From a virus (Duplodnaviria > Heunggongvirae > Uroviricota > Caudoviricetes), in the IMG/VR virus record IMGVR_UViG_3300022178_000016: 32,879 nt of DNA, one strand, 5' to 3'. The notes under the pieces were generated by a model, which was not told the origin of the DNA, did not search any database, and worked only from the letters and a program-made list of their open reading frames with translations. Both the position numbers and the translations under genes were made by a program. This document shows positions 2,048-30,336 of the stretch, in pieces. Numbering within the stretch: position 1 is the first letter of the stretch; each line of letters begins with the position of its first letter.

Positions 2048-2469
2048 GGACAGGGTGAATATTCTATTAAGTGTATTCCTCTGTCCTTCTCATTTAACAG
2101 AAATGACACTTGAGATATTTGCTACTTAGAGTAAAGTAGATCGGATTGGAGAGATATGTCTAGCAATAGCTGCACTCACCGTACCAGTCCTAAAGAGCAA
2201 GAAGATACCAAGGCTCAAAGTGTGGGGTTGTGAGGGGATAACACTGGTTTAACGCCCTGTAAGGCGTAAATCCCTAACCTGATTGATTACAGTAGGATTC
2301 AGGTTGTCGCAGCTACAGGATAGCTGTTCTGCTTTATGCAGCGGGTTCATCTCGGTTGACGGAGAATGTGTCTCGGATAAAAGAACCAATGGTTTGTCTA
2401 GGTACTTTGTTTAAAGTATATGGCAAGCTATGGGATTCTTTTATCCAAATTATCTGATTTCAAAAGAAT
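2048..2469 (+). ncRNA. candidate large structured ncRNA (or RNA-primed origin)
   Basis: No credible ORF; directly downstream of a promoter; more than 10 helices found by eye (e.g. AACCTGA/TCAGGTT, CAGCTA/TAGCTG, ACGCC/GGCGT, GGACAG/CTGTCC, TTGCTA/TAGCAA) and a possible pseudoknot. Confidence 0.5.
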
Positions 2470-2513
2470 TGTTTATATTAGTATTTAAAATAGTTATTAT
2501 AGAAGAGGTTTTA

Positions 2514-3083
2514 ATGATTAAATCACAAATAGGGAATTACACTAAAGGGAAATACAAAAGTTATTCTGAAGGTAGTCTGACAAAAGAATACCGACTTTGG
2601 AAAAGCATGTTAAATAGGTGTTACGGCAAGAGCACACCAACCAGAAAGCCAACTTACAAAGGTTGCACTGTTTCAGATAACTTTAAGGATTTTCAGTTCT
2701 TTGCAGAGTGGTGCAATAATCAAGTAGGTTTTGGGAATGAGGGTTGGCAATTGGATAAAGATATACTAATCAAAGGCAACAAGGTTTATTCTGAAGACAA
2801 TTGTTGTTTTGTACCGAAAGAGATTAATTGCCTGTTTTTAGATCATCAAGCAAAGCGTGGTAACTGCCCTATTGGGGTTAGTTACCACAAGCCCCAAAAC
2901 AACTATCAAGTGTCCTTAAGTAAGTATGGTAAAGTACACAATCTTGGTTATTTCCTTGATCCCATCAATGCACATAAGCACTACATAGTTGCCAAGATAC
3001 TACATGTAAAAGAAATTGCTTTGTCCTACAAAGAGGCTATTGACCAAAGAGTTTATGAAGCCCTTATGGCTTGGGAAGGATGA
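2514..3083 (+). CDS. free-standing HNH homing endonuclease
   Basis: YRLWKSMLNRCY...PTYKGCTV...F..F..W...WQLDKDIL...YSEDNCCFVP.EIN; start re-placed at ATG 2514 after GAGG SD. Confidence 0.85.
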   Translation: MIKSQIGNYTKGKYKSYSEGSLTKEYRLWKSMLNRCYGKSTPTRKPTYKGCTVSDNFKDFQFFAEWCNNQVGFGNEGWQLDKDILIKGNKVYSEDNCCFVPKEINCLFLDHQAKRGNCPIGVSYHKPQNNYQVSLSKYGKVHNLGYFLDPINAHKHYIVAKILHVKEIALSYKEAIDQRVYEALMAWEG

Positions 3084-11436: not shown

Positions 11437-11994
11437 ATGAAACCTTTATTATTCATTATCCTAATAGGGTTGAGCCTTCCTATAAAGCCCGTAGAGCCAC
11501 GTTATGCAGGTTACCTAGGCAATCCTATTACCGAGGTTAAGAAAGAGCTTGTAGAGCCTTCTACTGAGGTACAAAAGGTCGCTGTGATTACAGATGACCC
11601 TGACACATGGACTGAACATGAGTGTTTGGCAAGGAATGTCTACTGGGAGAGCAAGGGGGAGGGTGTTAAGGGTATGGCACTAACCGCTCAAATCACCCTA
11701 AACCGTGTCAACAGTAATAAGAGGTATTTTCCTAATACTGTATGCCAAGTAGTTAGACAAAAACTCACTAGAGGGTGCAGCTTTAGTTGGTTCTGTGACG
11801 GTAAGTCAGATAAACCTAGAGAGTTGGCAAGGTTTGAAGAAGCAAAAGAAGTTGCAACAAAGGCTTTACAAGGTGAGTACAAGGACTTAATAAAAGTAAA
11901 GTATTATAAGCGTTGTGACACTCCCAGTGACTTCTTCAATACTCTTGTTTATAAATTTAGGTATAAGAATCACTGTTACTACTCAGAGGGTTGA
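11437..11994 (+). CDS. SleB/Hydrolase_2 family cell wall hydrolase with N-terminal hydrophobic anchor/signal
   Basis: CLARNVYWESKGE...LNRVNS...FPNTVCQVV...C(S)FSW; catalytic Glu in the YWES motif. Confidence 0.9.
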   Translation: MKPLLFIILIGLSLPIKPVEPRYAGYLGNPITEVKKELVEPSTEVQKVAVITDDPDTWTEHECLARNVYWESKGEGVKGMALTAQITLNRVNSNKRYFPNTVCQVVRQKLTRGCSFSWFCDGKSDKPRELARFEEAKEVATKALQGEYKDLIKVKYYKRCDTPSDFFNTLVYKFRYKNHCYYSEG

Positions 11995-12010
11995 GGGGAG
12001 GGTATTTAAT

Positions 12011-12805
12011 ATGAAGGACATTAAGAGTTTAGAACTTAGTAAAGACTTACACGGACTGTGGACAGACCCCACTGATTTAATCAGTAAACAGTACAATGGG
12101 TGTATTATTATTGAGTATTGTGGATGGGCGTGGGACGTAACAAAAAGAAGGAAACACTGGTATAAGATAGAATGTTTTTGCGGGGCACCATTCTACACCA
12201 ATCACACGATGCTGCGGTACAACTCCATCAAAGGTTGTGGTTGTTCTAGGGAGTCTTCTAGTAAAACCCATAACAGAAGTAATGATAAGGTCTACAGGAA
12301 CTATCATGGGATGTTAAATAGGTGCTATAACCCTAAACACGATGCGTATGATAACTACGGTGGTAGAGGTATCCGTGTCTGCGATAGGTGGCGTATGAAG
12401 GTACAAGGGTTCTATAACTTCCTAGAGGACATGGGGGAGATTCCTGAGGGGTTAAGCTTAGACAGGATTGACGTTAACGGAAATTATGCACCTGATAACT
12501 GTAGGTGGGCAACTAAAACAGAACAGAATTATAATCAACGAAAGAGGAAAGATAACACTTCAGGGGTTACTGGGGTTAGGTTGGAACCTAGGTACAATAC
12601 TTGGGTTGCTTCCATAAGAATTAACAAGAAAATTATACATCTAGGTTCTTACAAAACCCGCTATGAGGCATATTTAGCTAGGATTGGAGGGGAATTACTA
12701 CACTATGGCGTAATAAAACAGCCAGTTTTTAATACTGAGGAAGACTTTTATAAGTATATACAAGGCTATGTTCAAAGTCTGTCAATTCTCCTACTGGAAC
12801 AATAA
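12011..12805 (+). CDS. free-standing HNH homing endonuclease (HNH plus AP2-like C-terminus)
   Basis: MLNRCYNP...YGGRGIRVCDRW...SLDRIDVNGNYAPDNCRWAT...QN...DNTSGVTGV; start at ATG 12011 after GGAGG. Confidence 0.9.
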   Translation: MKDIKSLELSKDLHGLWTDPTDLISKQYNGCIIIEYCGWAWDVTKRRKHWYKIECFCGAPFYTNHTMLRYNSIKGCGCSRESSSKTHNRSNDKVYRNYHGMLNRCYNPKHDAYDNYGGRGIRVCDRWRMKVQGFYNFLEDMGEIPEGLSLDRIDVNGNYAPDNCRWATKTEQNYNQRKRKDNTSGVTGVRLEPRYNTWVASIRINKKIIHLGSYKTRYEAYLARIGGELLHYGVIKQPVFNTEEDFYKYIQGYVQSLSILLLEQ

Positions 12806-13001
12806 GAATTTAGAGATAAAAGACTTGCAAGCTTATGAGAAAGTGTATAGAATAGCTACACAGGCTTTGGGAGGTAAGTTTAAAAGCTTTACAAAGACTA
12901 CTTTCTGTAAAAGATGTGATGTTGAAAGTAAGTTCTTTGATACGTTGACCTTCAAAGGTGCTGTTGGTAAGCATTGTTATTTTCAAGTAGCTAGTAGGTG
13001 A
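12768..13001 (+). pseudogene. stranded duplicate C-terminus of the SleB hydrolase
   Basis: CQFSYW...ATQALGG.FK...KRCD...FF.TL..K...HCYF aligns with the end of 11437-11994 (about 26 identities in about 69 positions by hand). Confidence 0.85.
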
Positions 13002-26212: not shown

Positions 26213-26513
26213 TTTATTTAACAAGATTAAAGAACTGACTGAAGAAATTCAATATGCAGTTTCATTTGAACCTTATGAGTGTGCTTGGTATCAAACTGAA
26301 GATGAGATTTACTGGAACACAGACTCTAATCTTGAAGAACTTTACGATGGTAATGGATCAACTTATTCAGGAGAACTTATTGAGGGTACTCATATTCAAG
26401 ATGGCTGTTACTTTGTAAACTTGGATAATGGATGTGGACAAACTATAACCAGAGTTTTCCTTGAGAATTTAGAAGTTGATTATGGGGATTTGGAGGAGAT
26501 GTTTGATGAGTAA
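26205..26513 (+). CDS. hypothetical acidic protein
   Basis: Start at ATG 26205 (MSNLFNKIK). Confidence 0.75.
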   Translation: MSNLFNKIKELTEEIQYAVSFEPYECAWYQTEDEIYWNTDSNLEELYDGNGSTYSGELIEGTHIQDGCYFVNLDNGCGQTITRVFLENLEVDYGDLEEMFDE

Positions 26514-27522
26514 CCTAACAGCAATTATTGATGCTGACGTAATTAAGTATGGAGCATCTTTTGCTGGTCAGAAGACTTCTATTGTGGTAACACACCCCAC
26601 TCTCAACATTAATGAAACCTTTGGCACTCGTACAGATTTTTATGGGAATTACCACAAGAAAGCAGGTGGGTGGTTATCCAAATATAACGAAGGTAGAGAT
26701 AGCCCCCTACTACCTTCAGAGTTTACGATAGAGGATGTAGTTAAACCAGAGCCTATTCAGAATGTCCTACATTCAGCAAAGTCTATGTATAACAACATGC
26801 ACACTTGTATAAATGCGAAGAGACATAAAGGTTTTATTGGTAAAGGTGATAGTTTTCGTCTTGAGCGTAGCACTTTAAAAAAGTACAAAGATCGCCCTGC
26901 TCCTAAACCTTTCCATATAGATGCAGTTACTGAATATTTAGAAACTGTCTTGAAATGTGAGGTTGTAACTGTTGAGGAAACTGATGAAAGGGTTACTCAA
27001 GAATGCTACAGGAAGACCAACTGTGTGGCAATCGGGGAAGATAAGGACTACTATGGGCAACCGAACAGATTCTTTAACATAAACAAACCAGAAGAAGGTA
27101 TTGTGAGCGGGGATTGTTTTGGATCTCTTTGGCTACAAGAAAAAACTAAAACTAATGGTAAGGTTGAGTCTGAAGTTCGTGGTATAGGTCGGATGTGGTT
27201 GTACTATCAAACTCTCAGCGAGGATGCTGCAGATAACTACAAAGCACATTGTTTTTCAGATGTAACTTGGGGAAGTAAATCTGCATACAAACAGTTAGTT
27301 GGTGCTGTGGATGATAAAGAAGCAATCACTAAAATGAAGGACGGGTTTCAACTTCTTTACCCAGAACCTAAAAAAGTAATTAGCTGGAGGGGAGACGAGA
27401 TTGAAATTGACTGGCTGTATGTCATGCAGGAATGTTTTACTATGGCTAGGATGAGGAAGATTAAAGGGGAACCTGAAGTTATGTTGAAAGATGTTATGGA
27501 CAGATTGAATATTAACTACTAA
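26506..27522 (+). CDS. 5'-3' exonuclease (T7 gp6/FEN-like)
   Basis: AIIDADV, KYKDR, EETDE, GEDKDY, EDAADNY acidic motifs; start at ATG 26506 after GGAGG. Confidence 0.85.
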   Translation: MSNLTAIIDADVIKYGASFAGQKTSIVVTHPTLNINETFGTRTDFYGNYHKKAGGWLSKYNEGRDSPLLPSEFTIEDVVKPEPIQNVLHSAKSMYNNMHTCINAKRHKGFIGKGDSFRLERSTLKKYKDRPAPKPFHIDAVTEYLETVLKCEVVTVEETDERVTQECYRKTNCVAIGEDKDYYGQPNRFFNINKPEEGIVSGDCFGSLWLQEKTKTNGKVESEVRGIGRMWLYYQTLSEDAADNYKAHCFSDVTWGSKSAYKQLVGAVDDKEAITKMKDGFQLLYPEPKKVISWRGDEIEIDWLYVMQECFTMARMRKIKGEPEVMLKDVMDRLNINY

Positions 27523-27547
27523 ATTAAACGACAAGAGGAAATAAACA

Positions 27548-27805
27548 ATGACAACTAATAAAACTGTAGCAAAAACTAATACAAACGTAGCTAAGAAAGC
27601 TACACCTAAACCAGCCGTAAAGAAACCAACCATTGCAGAACTCACTAATGAGATTAAAGTTTGGGAAACTACAGTGCTAAATCTTGAGAATGAGTTAATC
27701 AAAAAGAATACTGAGATATTGAATTTGAAAGCTGATATTAAAACTCTTGAAGAACGTTCTTTGTTTGGTGAGTTTATGTTTCGTATTAGTAAGAACTTTC
27801 GATAG
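27548..27805 (+). CDS. hypothetical protein (Lys/Ala/Thr-rich N-terminus plus coiled coil)
   Basis: 85 aa, GAGG SD. Confidence 0.8.
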   Translation: MTTNKTVAKTNTNVAKKATPKPAVKKPTIAELTNEIKVWETTVLNLENELIKKNTEILNLKADIKTLEERSLFGEFMFRISKNFR

Positions 27806-27814
27806 GAGGTTCAT

Positions 27815-27907
27815 ATGATTACTTTAACTAAACCCCAACTGGCAAGTAGTGAGATTCCTGACATTTATACACAAGTTACTTGGCCTAAAATAATTCAGGA
27901 GTATTGA
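27815..27907 (+). pseudogene. stranded duplicate N-terminus of the DNA ligase (30-codon ORF)
   Basis: MITLTKPQLASSEIPDIYTQVTWPKIIQ versus ligase MLLMKQPMLACSDIPCLETQVKYPCLIQ: 13/28 identical, ungapped; AGGAGG SD. Confidence 0.85.
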
Positions 27908-28521
27908 GATTGTCTGAGTTTCCTAAGATTCCTAGAAGAAAGGGTAAAATATCTTTAATATATGGGGTAGGTTTAAATGATGCAGATTATCAAGTTGATA
28001 TTAGGGGTGAAAAGAGGCTAAGGTGCCCTTACTTCACAACGTGGTCTAATATGGTAAAGAGGTGTTATAATACAAAAACTTTATCCAGCTACCCAACGTA
28101 CACTGACACCACTGTTTGTGAGGAATGGTTGACATTTTCACGATTCAAGTCATGGATGGAAACTCAAAACTGGGAAGGTAGGGAGTTAGATAAAGACTTA
28201 CTTGGGGACGGTAGTTCCTACTCACCAGAAACATGTGTGTTTGTAGATAGACTTACGAATTGTTTCATGTTGGATTGCGGTAGTAGGAGAGGTTCTTATA
28301 AAATAGGGGTGGATTTATACAAACCATCTGGGAGATTTAGGGCGAGATGTAGTAATCCTTTTACTAATACCACAGAACACTTAGGTTACTACCCCTCTGA
28401 AGAAGGTGCCAATTCTGCTTGGAGAGAGCGTAAAAAGCAATTAGCAATAATCTTGTCAGCACTTCAAGAAGATGAAAGGGTTGCCAAGAGATTAATTCAT
28501 ATGTATGAGGAGACTATTTAA
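27904..28521 (+). CDS. free-standing HNH homing endonuclease
   Basis: YGVGLNDADY...WSNMVKRCY...VCEEWLTFSRFKSW...ELDKDLL...YSPETCVFV; TTG start with AGGAG SD; same subfamily as 2514-3083. Confidence 0.85.
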   Translation: MRLSEFPKIPRRKGKISLIYGVGLNDADYQVDIRGEKRLRCPYFTTWSNMVKRCYNTKTLSSYPTYTDTTVCEEWLTFSRFKSWMETQNWEGRELDKDLLGDGSSYSPETCVFVDRLTNCFMLDCGSRRGSYKIGVDLYKPSGRFRARCSNPFTNTTEHLGYYPSEEGANSAWRERKKQLAIILSALQEDERVAKRLIHMYEETI

Positions 28522-29394
28522 ATGTTACTTATGAAACAGCCCATGCTGGCTTGTTCGGATATTCCATGCTTAGAGACACAGGTGAAATACCCATGCCTCA
28601 TACAGTGTAAAGTTGATGGAATTAGATGTGTGGCTATTAACGGAAAAGCCTACAGTCGTAAAATGAAACTAATCCCTAATAAGTTTATACAGAAAGTATT
28701 CGCCGAGTTAGGGTTACATGGATTTGATGGAGAGTTAATGGTTCATGGGGATTTCAACAAAGTCCAATCCGCTGTTATGAGTGAGGATGGTGAACCTGAT
28801 TTCTATTATGTTGTTTATGATTGGTGGAATTTGGAACAGAACTACGAAGAACGTTTTAAGTGTGTAGTAAGTGCCGTGAGTCTATTAAACTCCCCTTACA
28901 TTGCAGCAATTGATAGTGGTGTGGTTGAGAATGCAGGACAAGCAGAGATTCAACTTGAACACTACATTAAAGCTGGCTATGAGGGAGCAATGTTGCGTTC
29001 TTTTAATAGTCCATACAAACAAGGGAGATCAACATTTAAAGAGGGCTACCTACTTAAGTTGAAGAAATTCTTAGATGATGAGGCTGTAGTGGTTGGGTTT
29101 GAGGAACGCCTACATAATACAAATGAAAAAGAACGTGATGAAAGAGGCTATGCTAAACGTTCCAGTAAGAAAGAAGGAATGGTTGGAGCCAACACACTTG
29201 GTAGCTTGATTGTAGAGTGGAAGGGTATTCTCTTTAATGTGGGCAGCGGATTCAACGATGCTCAAAGAAAAGAGATATGGGATAATAAAGAGGAATACCT
29301 AGGTAAACTAATCACCTTCCGTTACCAAGAGTTATCTGCACTAGGAGTGCCTAGGTTTGGGACATTCAAATGGTTCAGGAGAGAGTATGACTAA
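28522..29394 (+). CDS. ATP-dependent DNA ligase
   Basis: KxDG motif (CKVDGIR), FDGEL, YEGAMLR, LLKLKKF, VGSGF, PRF. Confidence 0.95.
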   Translation: MLLMKQPMLACSDIPCLETQVKYPCLIQCKVDGIRCVAINGKAYSRKMKLIPNKFIQKVFAELGLHGFDGELMVHGDFNKVQSAVMSEDGEPDFYYVVYDWWNLEQNYEERFKCVVSAVSLLNSPYIAAIDSGVVENAGQAEIQLEHYIKAGYEGAMLRSFNSPYKQGRSTFKEGYLLKLKKFLDDEAVVVGFEERLHNTNEKERDERGYAKRSSKKEGMVGANTLGSLIVEWKGILFNVGSGFNDAQRKEIWDNKEEYLGKLITFRYQELSALGVPRFGTFKWFRREYD

Positions 29395-29941
29395 TCCTTG
29401 GGATACTGATGAAGGGAGGGTAGTCTGGAAAAGGGAGGCCGACTACTGGAGCTGGTTAAGGTCGGCCCTCAGAAGGCTTTGGAGCGACTACCCCTTACGT
29501 AAGGTATGGAAGCAGTCTCAACTTCGTCCAGTGACCGCACAGGAACGTTTAGATAAGGTTTACCACCCTTCAACTAAGAACGTTGGTCAGTGTAGTTTCT
29601 GTAAGGAATGGATGGCAGGAAGTAAATTAGAGTGTGACCACTTAATCGAATCTGATGGTTGTACCTCTAAGAAAACTGCTGAATCCTTCCTGTGGCACTG
29701 TGGTGGCCTTATTGGAAAAGACTTCAGGTTGGCATGTAAACCTTGTCATAAAATTCGTTCCCATCAACAGAGGACGGGTGGGACATTTGAAGAAGCTAGG
29801 ATTGAGAAAGAAGTTATAGCTATATCAAAAGCTAAACAATCTTCTCAGTGGCTCCTTGATAAAGGTGTTGAACCTGCTTCAAATGAAACTAAGAGAAAAC
29901 AACAAATACGGGAGTTATTGTTTAATGAAGAGAAAAGATAA
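29387..29941 (+). CDS. Zn-finger HNH endonuclease of the replication module
   Basis: CSFC...ECDH...LACKPCHKIRS; start at ATG 29387. Confidence 0.75.
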   Translation: MTNPWDTDEGRVVWKREADYWSWLRSALRRLWSDYPLRKVWKQSQLRPVTAQERLDKVYHPSTKNVGQCSFCKEWMAGSKLECDHLIESDGCTSKKTAESFLWHCGGLIGKDFRLACKPCHKIRSHQQRTGGTFEEARIEKEVIAISKAKQSSQWLLDKGVEPASNETKRKQQIRELLFNEEKR

Positions 29942-30179
29942 ATTTTATTTAAACTGGAAATGGTGGGTATGCCTTCCATACCTTCTTTCAATAATTCCCT
30001 TAATACTTGTTTTCTATGTTATCTCTGGAGTGGTTTGGTTTGTTGGTGAGGTATGTATCAAGTTGCATTCTCTCTTGTGGTTGGATTTAAACTACACATT
30101 AGGTAAGTGGCTTGGTATTGGAAGACTTGGTAATTGGATATGGAAAAAAGAGGAGTTACTTAACTATGATCCTAAATGA
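29925..30179 (+). CDS. membrane protein
   Basis: Long hydrophobic helix; start at ATG 29925. Confidence 0.65.
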   Translation: MKRKDKFYLNWKWWVCLPYLLSIIPLILVFYVISGVVWFVGEVCIKLHSLLWLDLNYTLGKWLGIGRLGNWIWKKEELLNYDPK

Positions 30180-30336
30180 AGATGGTGATGAACTGTCAAC
30201 AGAACAAGTGATGAAAGAGCTATTGAAACACCATAGTCTGCATTATGTTTTATTCCTAGCAATGAGTCAGTATGGCTATGATAGCGCTGAGTATATGTCT
30301 GATAAAGTAATGAAAACTATTGATGAGGTGATGTGA
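30166..30336 (+). CDS. hypothetical protein
   Basis: Start at ATG 30166 after AGGAG. Confidence 0.7.
   Translation: MILNEDGDELSTEQVMKELLKHHSLHYVLFLAMSQYGYDSAEYMSDKVMKTIDEVM

Follow-up and report, generated by a model that had tools for sequence, protein, structure and literature searches.

We analysed a stretch of 32,879 nucleotides (the window) from the Caudoviricetes record IMGVR_UViG_3300022178_000016, part of a 96.9-kb virus record with direct terminal repeats, and focused on its DNA ligase locus, in which all genes lie on the plus strand. At this locus a short relic of one ligase gene, a gene for a homing-endonuclease-like protein and a complete gene for a different ligase follow one another. 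The relic, a stub of 28 codons (27815..27898) opening a 30-codon open reading frame (ORF; 27815-27907), is, as judged from the closest relative, the former 5' end of the resident ligase, still standing at the ancestral ligase start. Related ligases split into lineages, two of which matter here: the L-type, to which the working ligase of the window belongs, and the O-type, whose N-terminus resembles the stub. The arrangement is best read as the outcome of an endonuclease-driven replacement, in which an O-type ligase gave way to a donor's endonuclease gene and L-type ligase and left the stub behind, and from the sequence comparisons we consider this reading quite likely.

The stub aligned without gaps to residues 1-28 of the window ligase, with 13 of 28 residues identical, and the match stopped after Gln28. 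From there the window ligase goes on with C-K-V-D-G, which places the break one codon before the lysine of motif I. A first-pass annotation of this DNA had described the 30-codon ORF with its AGGAGG, the gapless match and the break after the Gln, and all of these were reproduced. When 81 loci of the endonuclease family were scanned for sequence duplicated upstream and downstream of the endonuclease gene, the window scored 66, with the 99th percentile of the null at 48. Searches of 50,697 GenBank phage records at the DNA and protein levels detected no close relative (best ligase match 47%, no match to the stub), and the relatives used here came from IMG/VR and metagenome assemblies. Among them, the intact O-type ligase P0018, encoded on contig L113, had an N-terminus identical to the stub at all 28 residues. 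The likeness of the stub to a ligase is therefore not a matter of chance. At the DNA level the stub and the L113 ligase start differed at nine synonymous positions and at no non-synonymous position (18.0 synonymous and 66.0 non-synonymous sites), from which it follows that the stub was still the start of a functional ligase during almost the whole period after the window and L113 diverged and was orphaned recently. The same comparison bears on the possibility that the stub is a decayed tandem duplicate of the 5' end of the present ligase, formed in situ. The 13/28 identity with the adjacent ligase would fit such an origin; however, a decaying copy would have collected replacement changes and stop codons, whereas the stub matches the live ligase of another lineage at 28 of 28 residues with silent differences only, and we regard a duplication of this kind as extremely improbable.

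L113, a 98-kb contig, was the closest relative found, with DNA 84-93% identical to that of the window from the polymerase to the small gene in front of the ligase locus, here called geneX (85 aa, 27548..27805). Over 26506-27898 the identity was 93%. In L113 geneX is followed directly by an intact ligase of 291 aa, with no endonuclease gene between them. The base-level alignment of the two genomes ran unbroken across geneX and the first 84 nt of the ligase and ended exactly after the CAG at 27898; past this point L113 reads CCG AAA TTA GAC GGT and the window reads GAG TAT TGA. Since a complete O-type ligase could not be rebuilt from a stub of 28 codons, the L113 layout cannot be derived from that of the window, and the window layout is the derived one. 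The proposal of the first-pass annotation that the stub is the old N-terminus of the resident ligase was thus borne out by the closest HNH-less relative, which carries a ligase start of the 27815 type.

The right-hand limit of the exchange was located by comparing the window with relatives of both ligase lineages. In a codon-based sliding comparison, the window ligase was about 50-70% identical to the L113 ligase in nucleotides along its whole length, including the 3' third (54% in amino acids). Its identity to the ligase of L001 was 70-89% in nucleotides and 75% in amino acids, and to P0049 it was 88% in amino acids. Identity between the window and L113 rose in steps, from 50-65% in the ligase to 72-75% over 29380-29456 and to 95-100% from about 29457, within the downstream gene. 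The opposite trend was observed with L114, a relative carrying an L-type ligase: about 80-87% in the ligase, 78% up to 29442, then 62-72%. These opposed shifts delimit a foreign tract from 27899 to about 29450, with a right recombination junction zone at 29388..29457 that takes in the stop codon of the ligase and the opening ~20 codons of the gene behind it. By these comparisons the tract holds the endonuclease-like gene, the entire ligase (28522..29394) and ~20 codons (~60 nt) of the next gene. The mobile unit had been proposed to consist of the HNH gene and a replacement 5' end of the ligase; the comparisons with L113 and L114 instead indicate that the event is a whole-gene replacement that left a 5' stub, not an exchange of N-termini, and that the working ligase is of a single lineage, not a hybrid.

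The position of the right junction also bears on a reversed polarity, in which the stub and the endonuclease gene would have arrived as a unit next to a native L-type ligase. In favour of a foreign stub, the HNH-less relatives L001 and L114-L116 have ligases of the 28522 type, and in two further genomes described below, L013 and L120, the 3' part of the stub and the endonuclease gene appear to have been transferred together. The first-pass annotation had taken the N-terminus of HNH-less relatives as the deciding comparison, and it pointed both ways, to the 27815 type in L113 and to the 28522 type in the other four; it is half informative, because both ligase lineages circulate without the endonuclease. 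Against a foreign stub, the upstream flank and the stub look like backbone, being 93% identical to L113, the alignment passes from geneX into the stub without interruption, and the backbone resumes only after the ligase, which puts the L-type ligase inside the foreign tract. We therefore consider an imported stub very improbable and retain the replacement of a resident O-type ligase.

At the left end, the foreign tract starts with GAG TAT TGA and a 2-nt spacer (27899..27909). The same layout was seen in L011, where the geneX homologue ends TTT TAG and, 2 nt further on, an endonuclease gene starts GTG ATT GAG TTC CC; the window has TAT TGA, 2 nt, and TTG TCT GAG TTT CC. The geneX homologues of L014 and L105 end in G-Y-stop. 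Judged from these relatives, the GAG TAT TGA that closes the stub ORF probably represents the last two codons and the stop of the donor's own geneX homologue. The homology with L011, the 203-residue gene calls with the same start on independent contigs and an AGGAG at 27897-27901, 8 nt upstream, together indicate that the endonuclease most likely starts at TTG 27910 (27910..28521, 203 aa), 2 nt past the TGA of the stub, and not at the alternative TTG 27904. It had been suggested that the last codons of the stub both supply the Shine-Dalgarno sequence of the endonuclease gene and overlap its start; the ribosome-binding site stands, while the overlap depended on TTG 27904. The stub also retains the original ribosome-binding site of the ligase, as had been proposed. 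This is an AGGAGG (27804..27809), 5 nt before the stub ATG, which first served the ligase start, now serves the stub ORF and is overlapped by the stop of geneX; the homologous position in L113 reads AGGGGG, ahead of a live ligase. Likewise, the 3' end of the endonuclease gene was found to supply the Shine-Dalgarno sequence of the working ligase, GAGGAG, 8 nt before its ATG.

The 203-aa protein matched phrog_953 (E 2e-75), and the PHROG families involved are annotated as HNH endonuclease. In a tblastn search it was 30% identical to ICP1 GP209 (E 7e-10; the gene is described as 'previously called GP209'). The full-length AlphaFold model had a pLDDT of 90.9, and its C-terminal part was predicted to adopt an AP2 fold. 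Fold searches returned AP2 matches only (2gcc_A, Z 6.9, rmsd 1.9 Å over 58 residues; 1gcc, TM 0.66), and a profile search of solved structures with the window protein gave only a weak AP2 match. The Pfam AP2 family matched 12 of the 48 members of the endonuclease family. Across all 48, D94-K95-D96 and N117 were invariant and no His was. In the full model, strands at 92-94 and 110-112 and a helix at 114-121 lie near the invariant residues and would form a beta-beta-alpha-like arrangement. The IPA-HNH homing endonuclease genes, including ICP1 gp59 and gp209, were defined by Barth, Dunham and Seed 2023 (PMC10448857), and by its sequence likeness the window protein is filed in this class as an AP2-domain endonuclease-like protein of the ICP1 gp209 type, with HNH chemistry left unassigned. 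The label 'HNH' of the first-pass annotation accordingly holds as far as the PHROG families and the homology to ICP1 gp209 go; it is not matched by a conserved catalytic His or by a Pfam or fold match to HNH.

The mobility of the gene was apparent from pairs of genomes that differ in its presence. L011 and L001 were 97.6-97.9% identical in the flanks on both sides, and only L011 carried the endonuclease gene, which is 65-67% identical to that of the window. Along with it, ~156 nt of geneX and some 450 nt at the start of the ligase had been replaced, and the ligase there is a hybrid. By this pattern the pair is a textbook case of homing with co-conversion, with no stub. Presence and absence at the same site were also observed for the window and L113 (left flank 93% identical, right flank 95-100%), with a replacement of co-conversion type that took in the entire ligase and ~60 nt of the next gene. 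These comparisons directly support the origin of the stub, the two junctions and the reach of the tract between them, and show the endonuclease gene to be mobile.

Stubs were not restricted to the window. In L013 the order is geneX, a 31-codon stub, an endonuclease gene of the same family (38% identical to that of the window) and a complete O-type ligase, and the stub is identical at 28 of 28 residues to the ligase start of the HNH-less L014. L120 has the endonuclease lineage and the break position of L013, with a stub of a different type and an unrelated upstream gene. The stubs of L013 and L120 end after CCT AAA CTN, 9 nt beyond the break in the window, so that all three end within 9 nt at motif I, each beside an endonuclease gene of the same family. 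In the scan of 81 loci a third target came up, with a similar structure in an unrelated gene in L099 (L099:2413-3380), where a 27-codon stub of a 94-aa gene lies upstream of a same-family endonuclease gene and the full gene lies downstream of it. The stub stop of L013 lies 10 nt before the endonuclease start; the stub ORFs of L120 and L099 overlap it. Stubs from two diverged endonuclease lineages that end within three codons of each other, the homing seen between L011 and L001 and the case of L099 together suggest that the breaks are the work of the endonuclease-like proteins and that cutting takes place where the stubs end. The codons of ligase motif I thus appear, from the stub positions, to be a repeatedly used target.

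Three further candidates were set aside. L070 had a high score in the scan, but its repeat lies about 400 nt from the endonuclease gene on each side and ends at two gene starts; these ~60-nt repeats (L070:2079-2160 and L070:3530-3600), before the start codons of two genes, are probably a repeated regulatory or intergenic element. P0130, on the 85-kb ENA contig L119, was considered as a longer stub and proved instead to be an O-type ligase broken into many small ORFs, among them ORFs of 52, 64, 69 and 74 aa (L119:3501-4386), for which real decay and assembly frameshifts or sequencing errors are both possible. P0129, a 143-aa product on a 579-bp contig, looks chimeric.

The codons at the break were compared between ligases with and without a linked endonuclease gene. 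The two inferred recipients, L113 and L001, read ATT CAG CCN AAR at the break. In ligases linked to the endonuclease clade of the window, the position of the Pro codon is occupied by TGT (window), CAA (L010) or GCA (L011). The Pro before the motif I lysine was kept in 12 of 17 HNH-less ligases and lost in the other five. In the window, the altered form of the presumed target is the Q-C-K-V-D-G region at 28603..28620, with the catalytic Lys30 at 28609-28611. The altered codons of the linked ligases are suggestive of self-protection, and the window ligase is probably made uncuttable by the TGT at its break site. Cys, Gly, Ala or Gln stands before the catalytic lysine in P0049, P0051, P0053, P0056, P0068 and P0074; P0049 and P0051, the two of these six whose neighbourhoods were examined, had no endonuclease gene upstream. 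HNH-less ligases that lack the Pro could, from their sequences, be alleles that outlived a lost endonuclease, or escape mutants. AP2 domains are said to prefer GC-rich sites (Barth et al. 2023, PMC10448857), and loss of the Pro codon takes away a GCC. It may be speculated that the AP2 domain reads the GCC of CAG-CCN-AAR, 5' of the lysine codon, which would explain why the Pro is lost so often.

The main alternative to an endonuclease-driven replacement is ordinary illegitimate recombination, or two separate events, with the endonuclease gene as a passenger and not the cause of the break. Several observations weigh against the endonuclease-driven reading. A donor with the endonuclease gene linked to an L-type ligase was not found among the relatives, and the three closest L-type ligases (88, 83 and 81% identical in amino acids) had no endonuclease gene upstream, so that the arrival of endonuclease and ligase in one step rests on parsimony. 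The nuclease activity of the 203-aa protein, and with it site-specific cleavage, is deduced from sequence. The catalytic His is missing, Pfam gave no HNH match for the window protein or any of its 48 relatives, hhalign against a single HNH_3 protein gave no match, the fold searches returned no HNH structure, and the N-terminal domain modelled alone was unusable (pLDDT 51). The HNH-less ligases P0049 (Cys) and P0051 (Gly), close L-type relatives, also lack the Pro codon, and the association between Pro loss and the endonuclease is weak (p of about 0.05 in a Fisher count that ignores shared ancestry). In addition, the region around the ligase is a general hotspot, in which various endonuclease genes lie to either side of it. 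Against a passenger, the stubs of the window, L013 and L120 end within 9 nt of one another at motif I and each directly abuts an endonuclease gene of this family, L099 repeats the pattern in another gene, and the co-conversion that separates L011 from L001 is centred on the endonuclease gene. On balance we consider a passenger role unlikely and keep to a break caused by the endonuclease.

In the replacement that we propose, the ancestor would have been L113-like, with geneX directly before an O-type ligase. During a mixed infection it would have met a donor with the gene order geneX homologue, AP2-type homing-endonuclease-like gene, L-type ligase and a homologue of the downstream gene. The resident ligase would have suffered a double-strand break at, or immediately beside, the codon that precedes its catalytic lysine (CAG|CCG AAA). 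To the right, the ~60%-identical foreign ligase would have offered no usable homology, and recombination would have taken place only in the next gene, at about 29450; in our reading of the sequence it was the phrog_1985 gene (29387-29941) that provided this right-hand homology. To the left, ligase codon 28 would have been joined without homology a few bases upstream of the donor endonuclease start. The product would be the present one, with the 28-codon stub, the endonuclease gene and the complete foreign ligase. Translation of the stub probably brings ribosomes to the endonuclease gene, since the stub still has the ribosome-binding site of the old ligase and its stop lies 2 nt short of the endonuclease start. 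What we infer in this scheme is that this endonuclease made the break, where exactly it cut, that the new allele resists cutting and that translation is coupled. The first-pass annotation had called the ligase essential, which is probably not the case. L105 (L105:5528-6438; 72% exonuclease identity) has geneX followed directly by an endonuclease-like gene and no ligase at the locus, and because of this genome the phage ligase seems dispensable in this group.

Selection may also have maintained the 30-codon ORF, either for coupling translation as a leader ORF or for serving as a homology arm; this would be compatible with the replacement described above, and we treat it as possible but doubtful. 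In its support, the ORF still has its strong Shine-Dalgarno sequence and an in-frame stop 2 nt ahead of the endonuclease start, the stub ORFs of L013, L120 and L099 stay open up to the endonuclease start, and the identity between L013 and L120 climbs through the stub from ~30% to 80%. Against it, the stub is young, and too little time may have passed for its frame to be broken; moreover, an in-frame join has a chance of one in three. The rise in identity between L013:156-262 and L120:695-814 is also compatible with a crossover inside the stub during later spread. We tentatively extend the same thought, with the reserve due to a sequence-based conjecture, to the stub as a working part, serving at once as a translated leader that passes ribosomes on to the endonuclease gene and as a left homology arm whose end is the cut site, so that the stub, the endonuclease gene and the start of the replacement gene would together form a self-contained, intron-like cassette. 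If this were true, the cassette could home into any phage with a related ligase, regardless of the upstream sequence, and L013 and L120, whose backgrounds are unrelated, would both descend from a single such cassette.

The free-standing seg and mob genes of T4-like phages spread by intronless homing, in which flanking markers are co-converted. In its classic form this homing relies on homology to the left and to the right and creates no duplication. The window locus resembles the T4-like seg and mob systems in that the gene is intergenic, is present or absent in close relatives and occurs with replacement of neighbouring sequence (L011 versus L001); it differs from classic intronless homing in its non-homologous left join and in the stub left behind. 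With ICP1 gp209 the endonuclease shares a divergent N-terminal nuclease-like domain and a C-terminal AP2 domain. IPA-HNH genes sit at boundaries of genetic exchange (Barth, Dunham and Seed 2023, PMC10448857), and the window endonuclease likewise stands at such a boundary; a word search of the same paper found no account of stranded gene ends.

By analogy, the closest described system is that of the fungal mitochondrial mORFs. These make hybrid genes in Glomus atp6, atp9, cox2 and nad3 (Beaudet et al. 2013, PMC3630166), and the Allomyces macrogynus atp6 mORF case was described by Paquin et al., as cited in Beaudet et al. 2013 (PMC3630166). In both the mORFs and the window an endonuclease ORF lies between a working copy and a displaced duplicate of one end of a gene. 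In both, the native relic is near the allele of an endonuclease-free relative, with silent differences, and the working copy is diverged and foreign; in the window the displaced duplicate was identical to L113 at 28 of 28 residues and to the window ligase at 13 of 28. The two differ in that mORFs replace the 3' end, encode LAGLIDADG or GIY-YIG proteins and produce a hybrid gene, whereas in the window the 5' end is stranded, the protein is AP2-type and HNH-like, the host is a phage and no hybrid gene was found, the whole ligase being foreign relative to L113. The stub in the window also appears to be still translatable and abuts the endonuclease start.

In word searches of the literature, no account came up of a gene start stranded next to a homing endonuclease in a phage; this is weak evidence of absence, as most subscription journals lay outside their scope. 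The case does not amount to a new system; its contribution lies in how finely the event is resolved and in offering, for a class of endonucleases that is poorly understood, a target site open to testing. All of the pieces are visible: the untouched allele in L113, the product in the window, which was recovered more than once from separate samples, the junctions, each located to a few bases, and silent-site differences that allow a dating argument. The replacement would imply that AP2-type endonuclease genes can drive the exchange of a whole neighbouring gene between diverged phages and not just of a short tract, and that one-sided non-homologous repair leaves short translated stub ORFs of a kind that annotation pipelines call hypothetical genes. 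The ligase 5' regions of the L113 type and the window type form a substrate pair for asking whether histidine-less 'HNH' proteins cut site-specifically.

The layout of the locus was the same in both independent assemblies that were read (L117 and L118), and on record the ligase sequence occurs on 12 contigs and the stub peptide on eight; an assembly artefact was considered as the source of the layout and judged unlikely on these grounds. Upstream of geneX lies an exonuclease gene (26476-27522, phrog_107). GeneX is conserved with L113, and its C-terminal end, NFR, stands directly before the ligase start in the HNH-less L001 and L113 as well. The window ligase matched DNA_ligase_A_M (PF01068) and DNA_ligase_OB_2 (PF14743), both above the Pfam cut-off, and contains K30-V-D-G. 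A scan of 26300-30200 for promoters and terminators gave background levels only. Right after the ligase comes a second, unrelated endonuclease-like gene (29387..29941, 184 aa; phrog_1985, E 4e-48), which is supported by gene calls on independent contigs. The slot after the ligase holds this phrog_1985 gene in the window, L113 and L013, and other endonuclease-like genes in L001 and L011 and in L014 and L105 (for example L001:4874-5473 and L014:4779-5399), so that mobile genes bracket the ligase on both sides.

A parallel case had been claimed for a SleB gene in the same genome, and a C-terminal duplication behind a related endonuclease gene was indeed found there, in support of the suggestion that such an event took place twice in this genome. 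At this locus (11437-13001) the gene order is a SleB-like hydrolase (PF07486), an endonuclease-like gene of 296 aa and an ORF of 77 aa, the last of which repeats the C-terminus of the hydrolase with 38% identity over 69 aa (E 1e-15). The endonuclease-like protein had been assigned to another HNH subfamily. It does belong to a different PHROG family (phrog_374, with a weak AP2 match), yet it is a distant homologue of the 203-aa protein (25% identity, E 8e-5). The window contains a third member of the endonuclease family studied here, a 217-aa protein encoded at 2430-3083 (phrog_953, E 2e-68).

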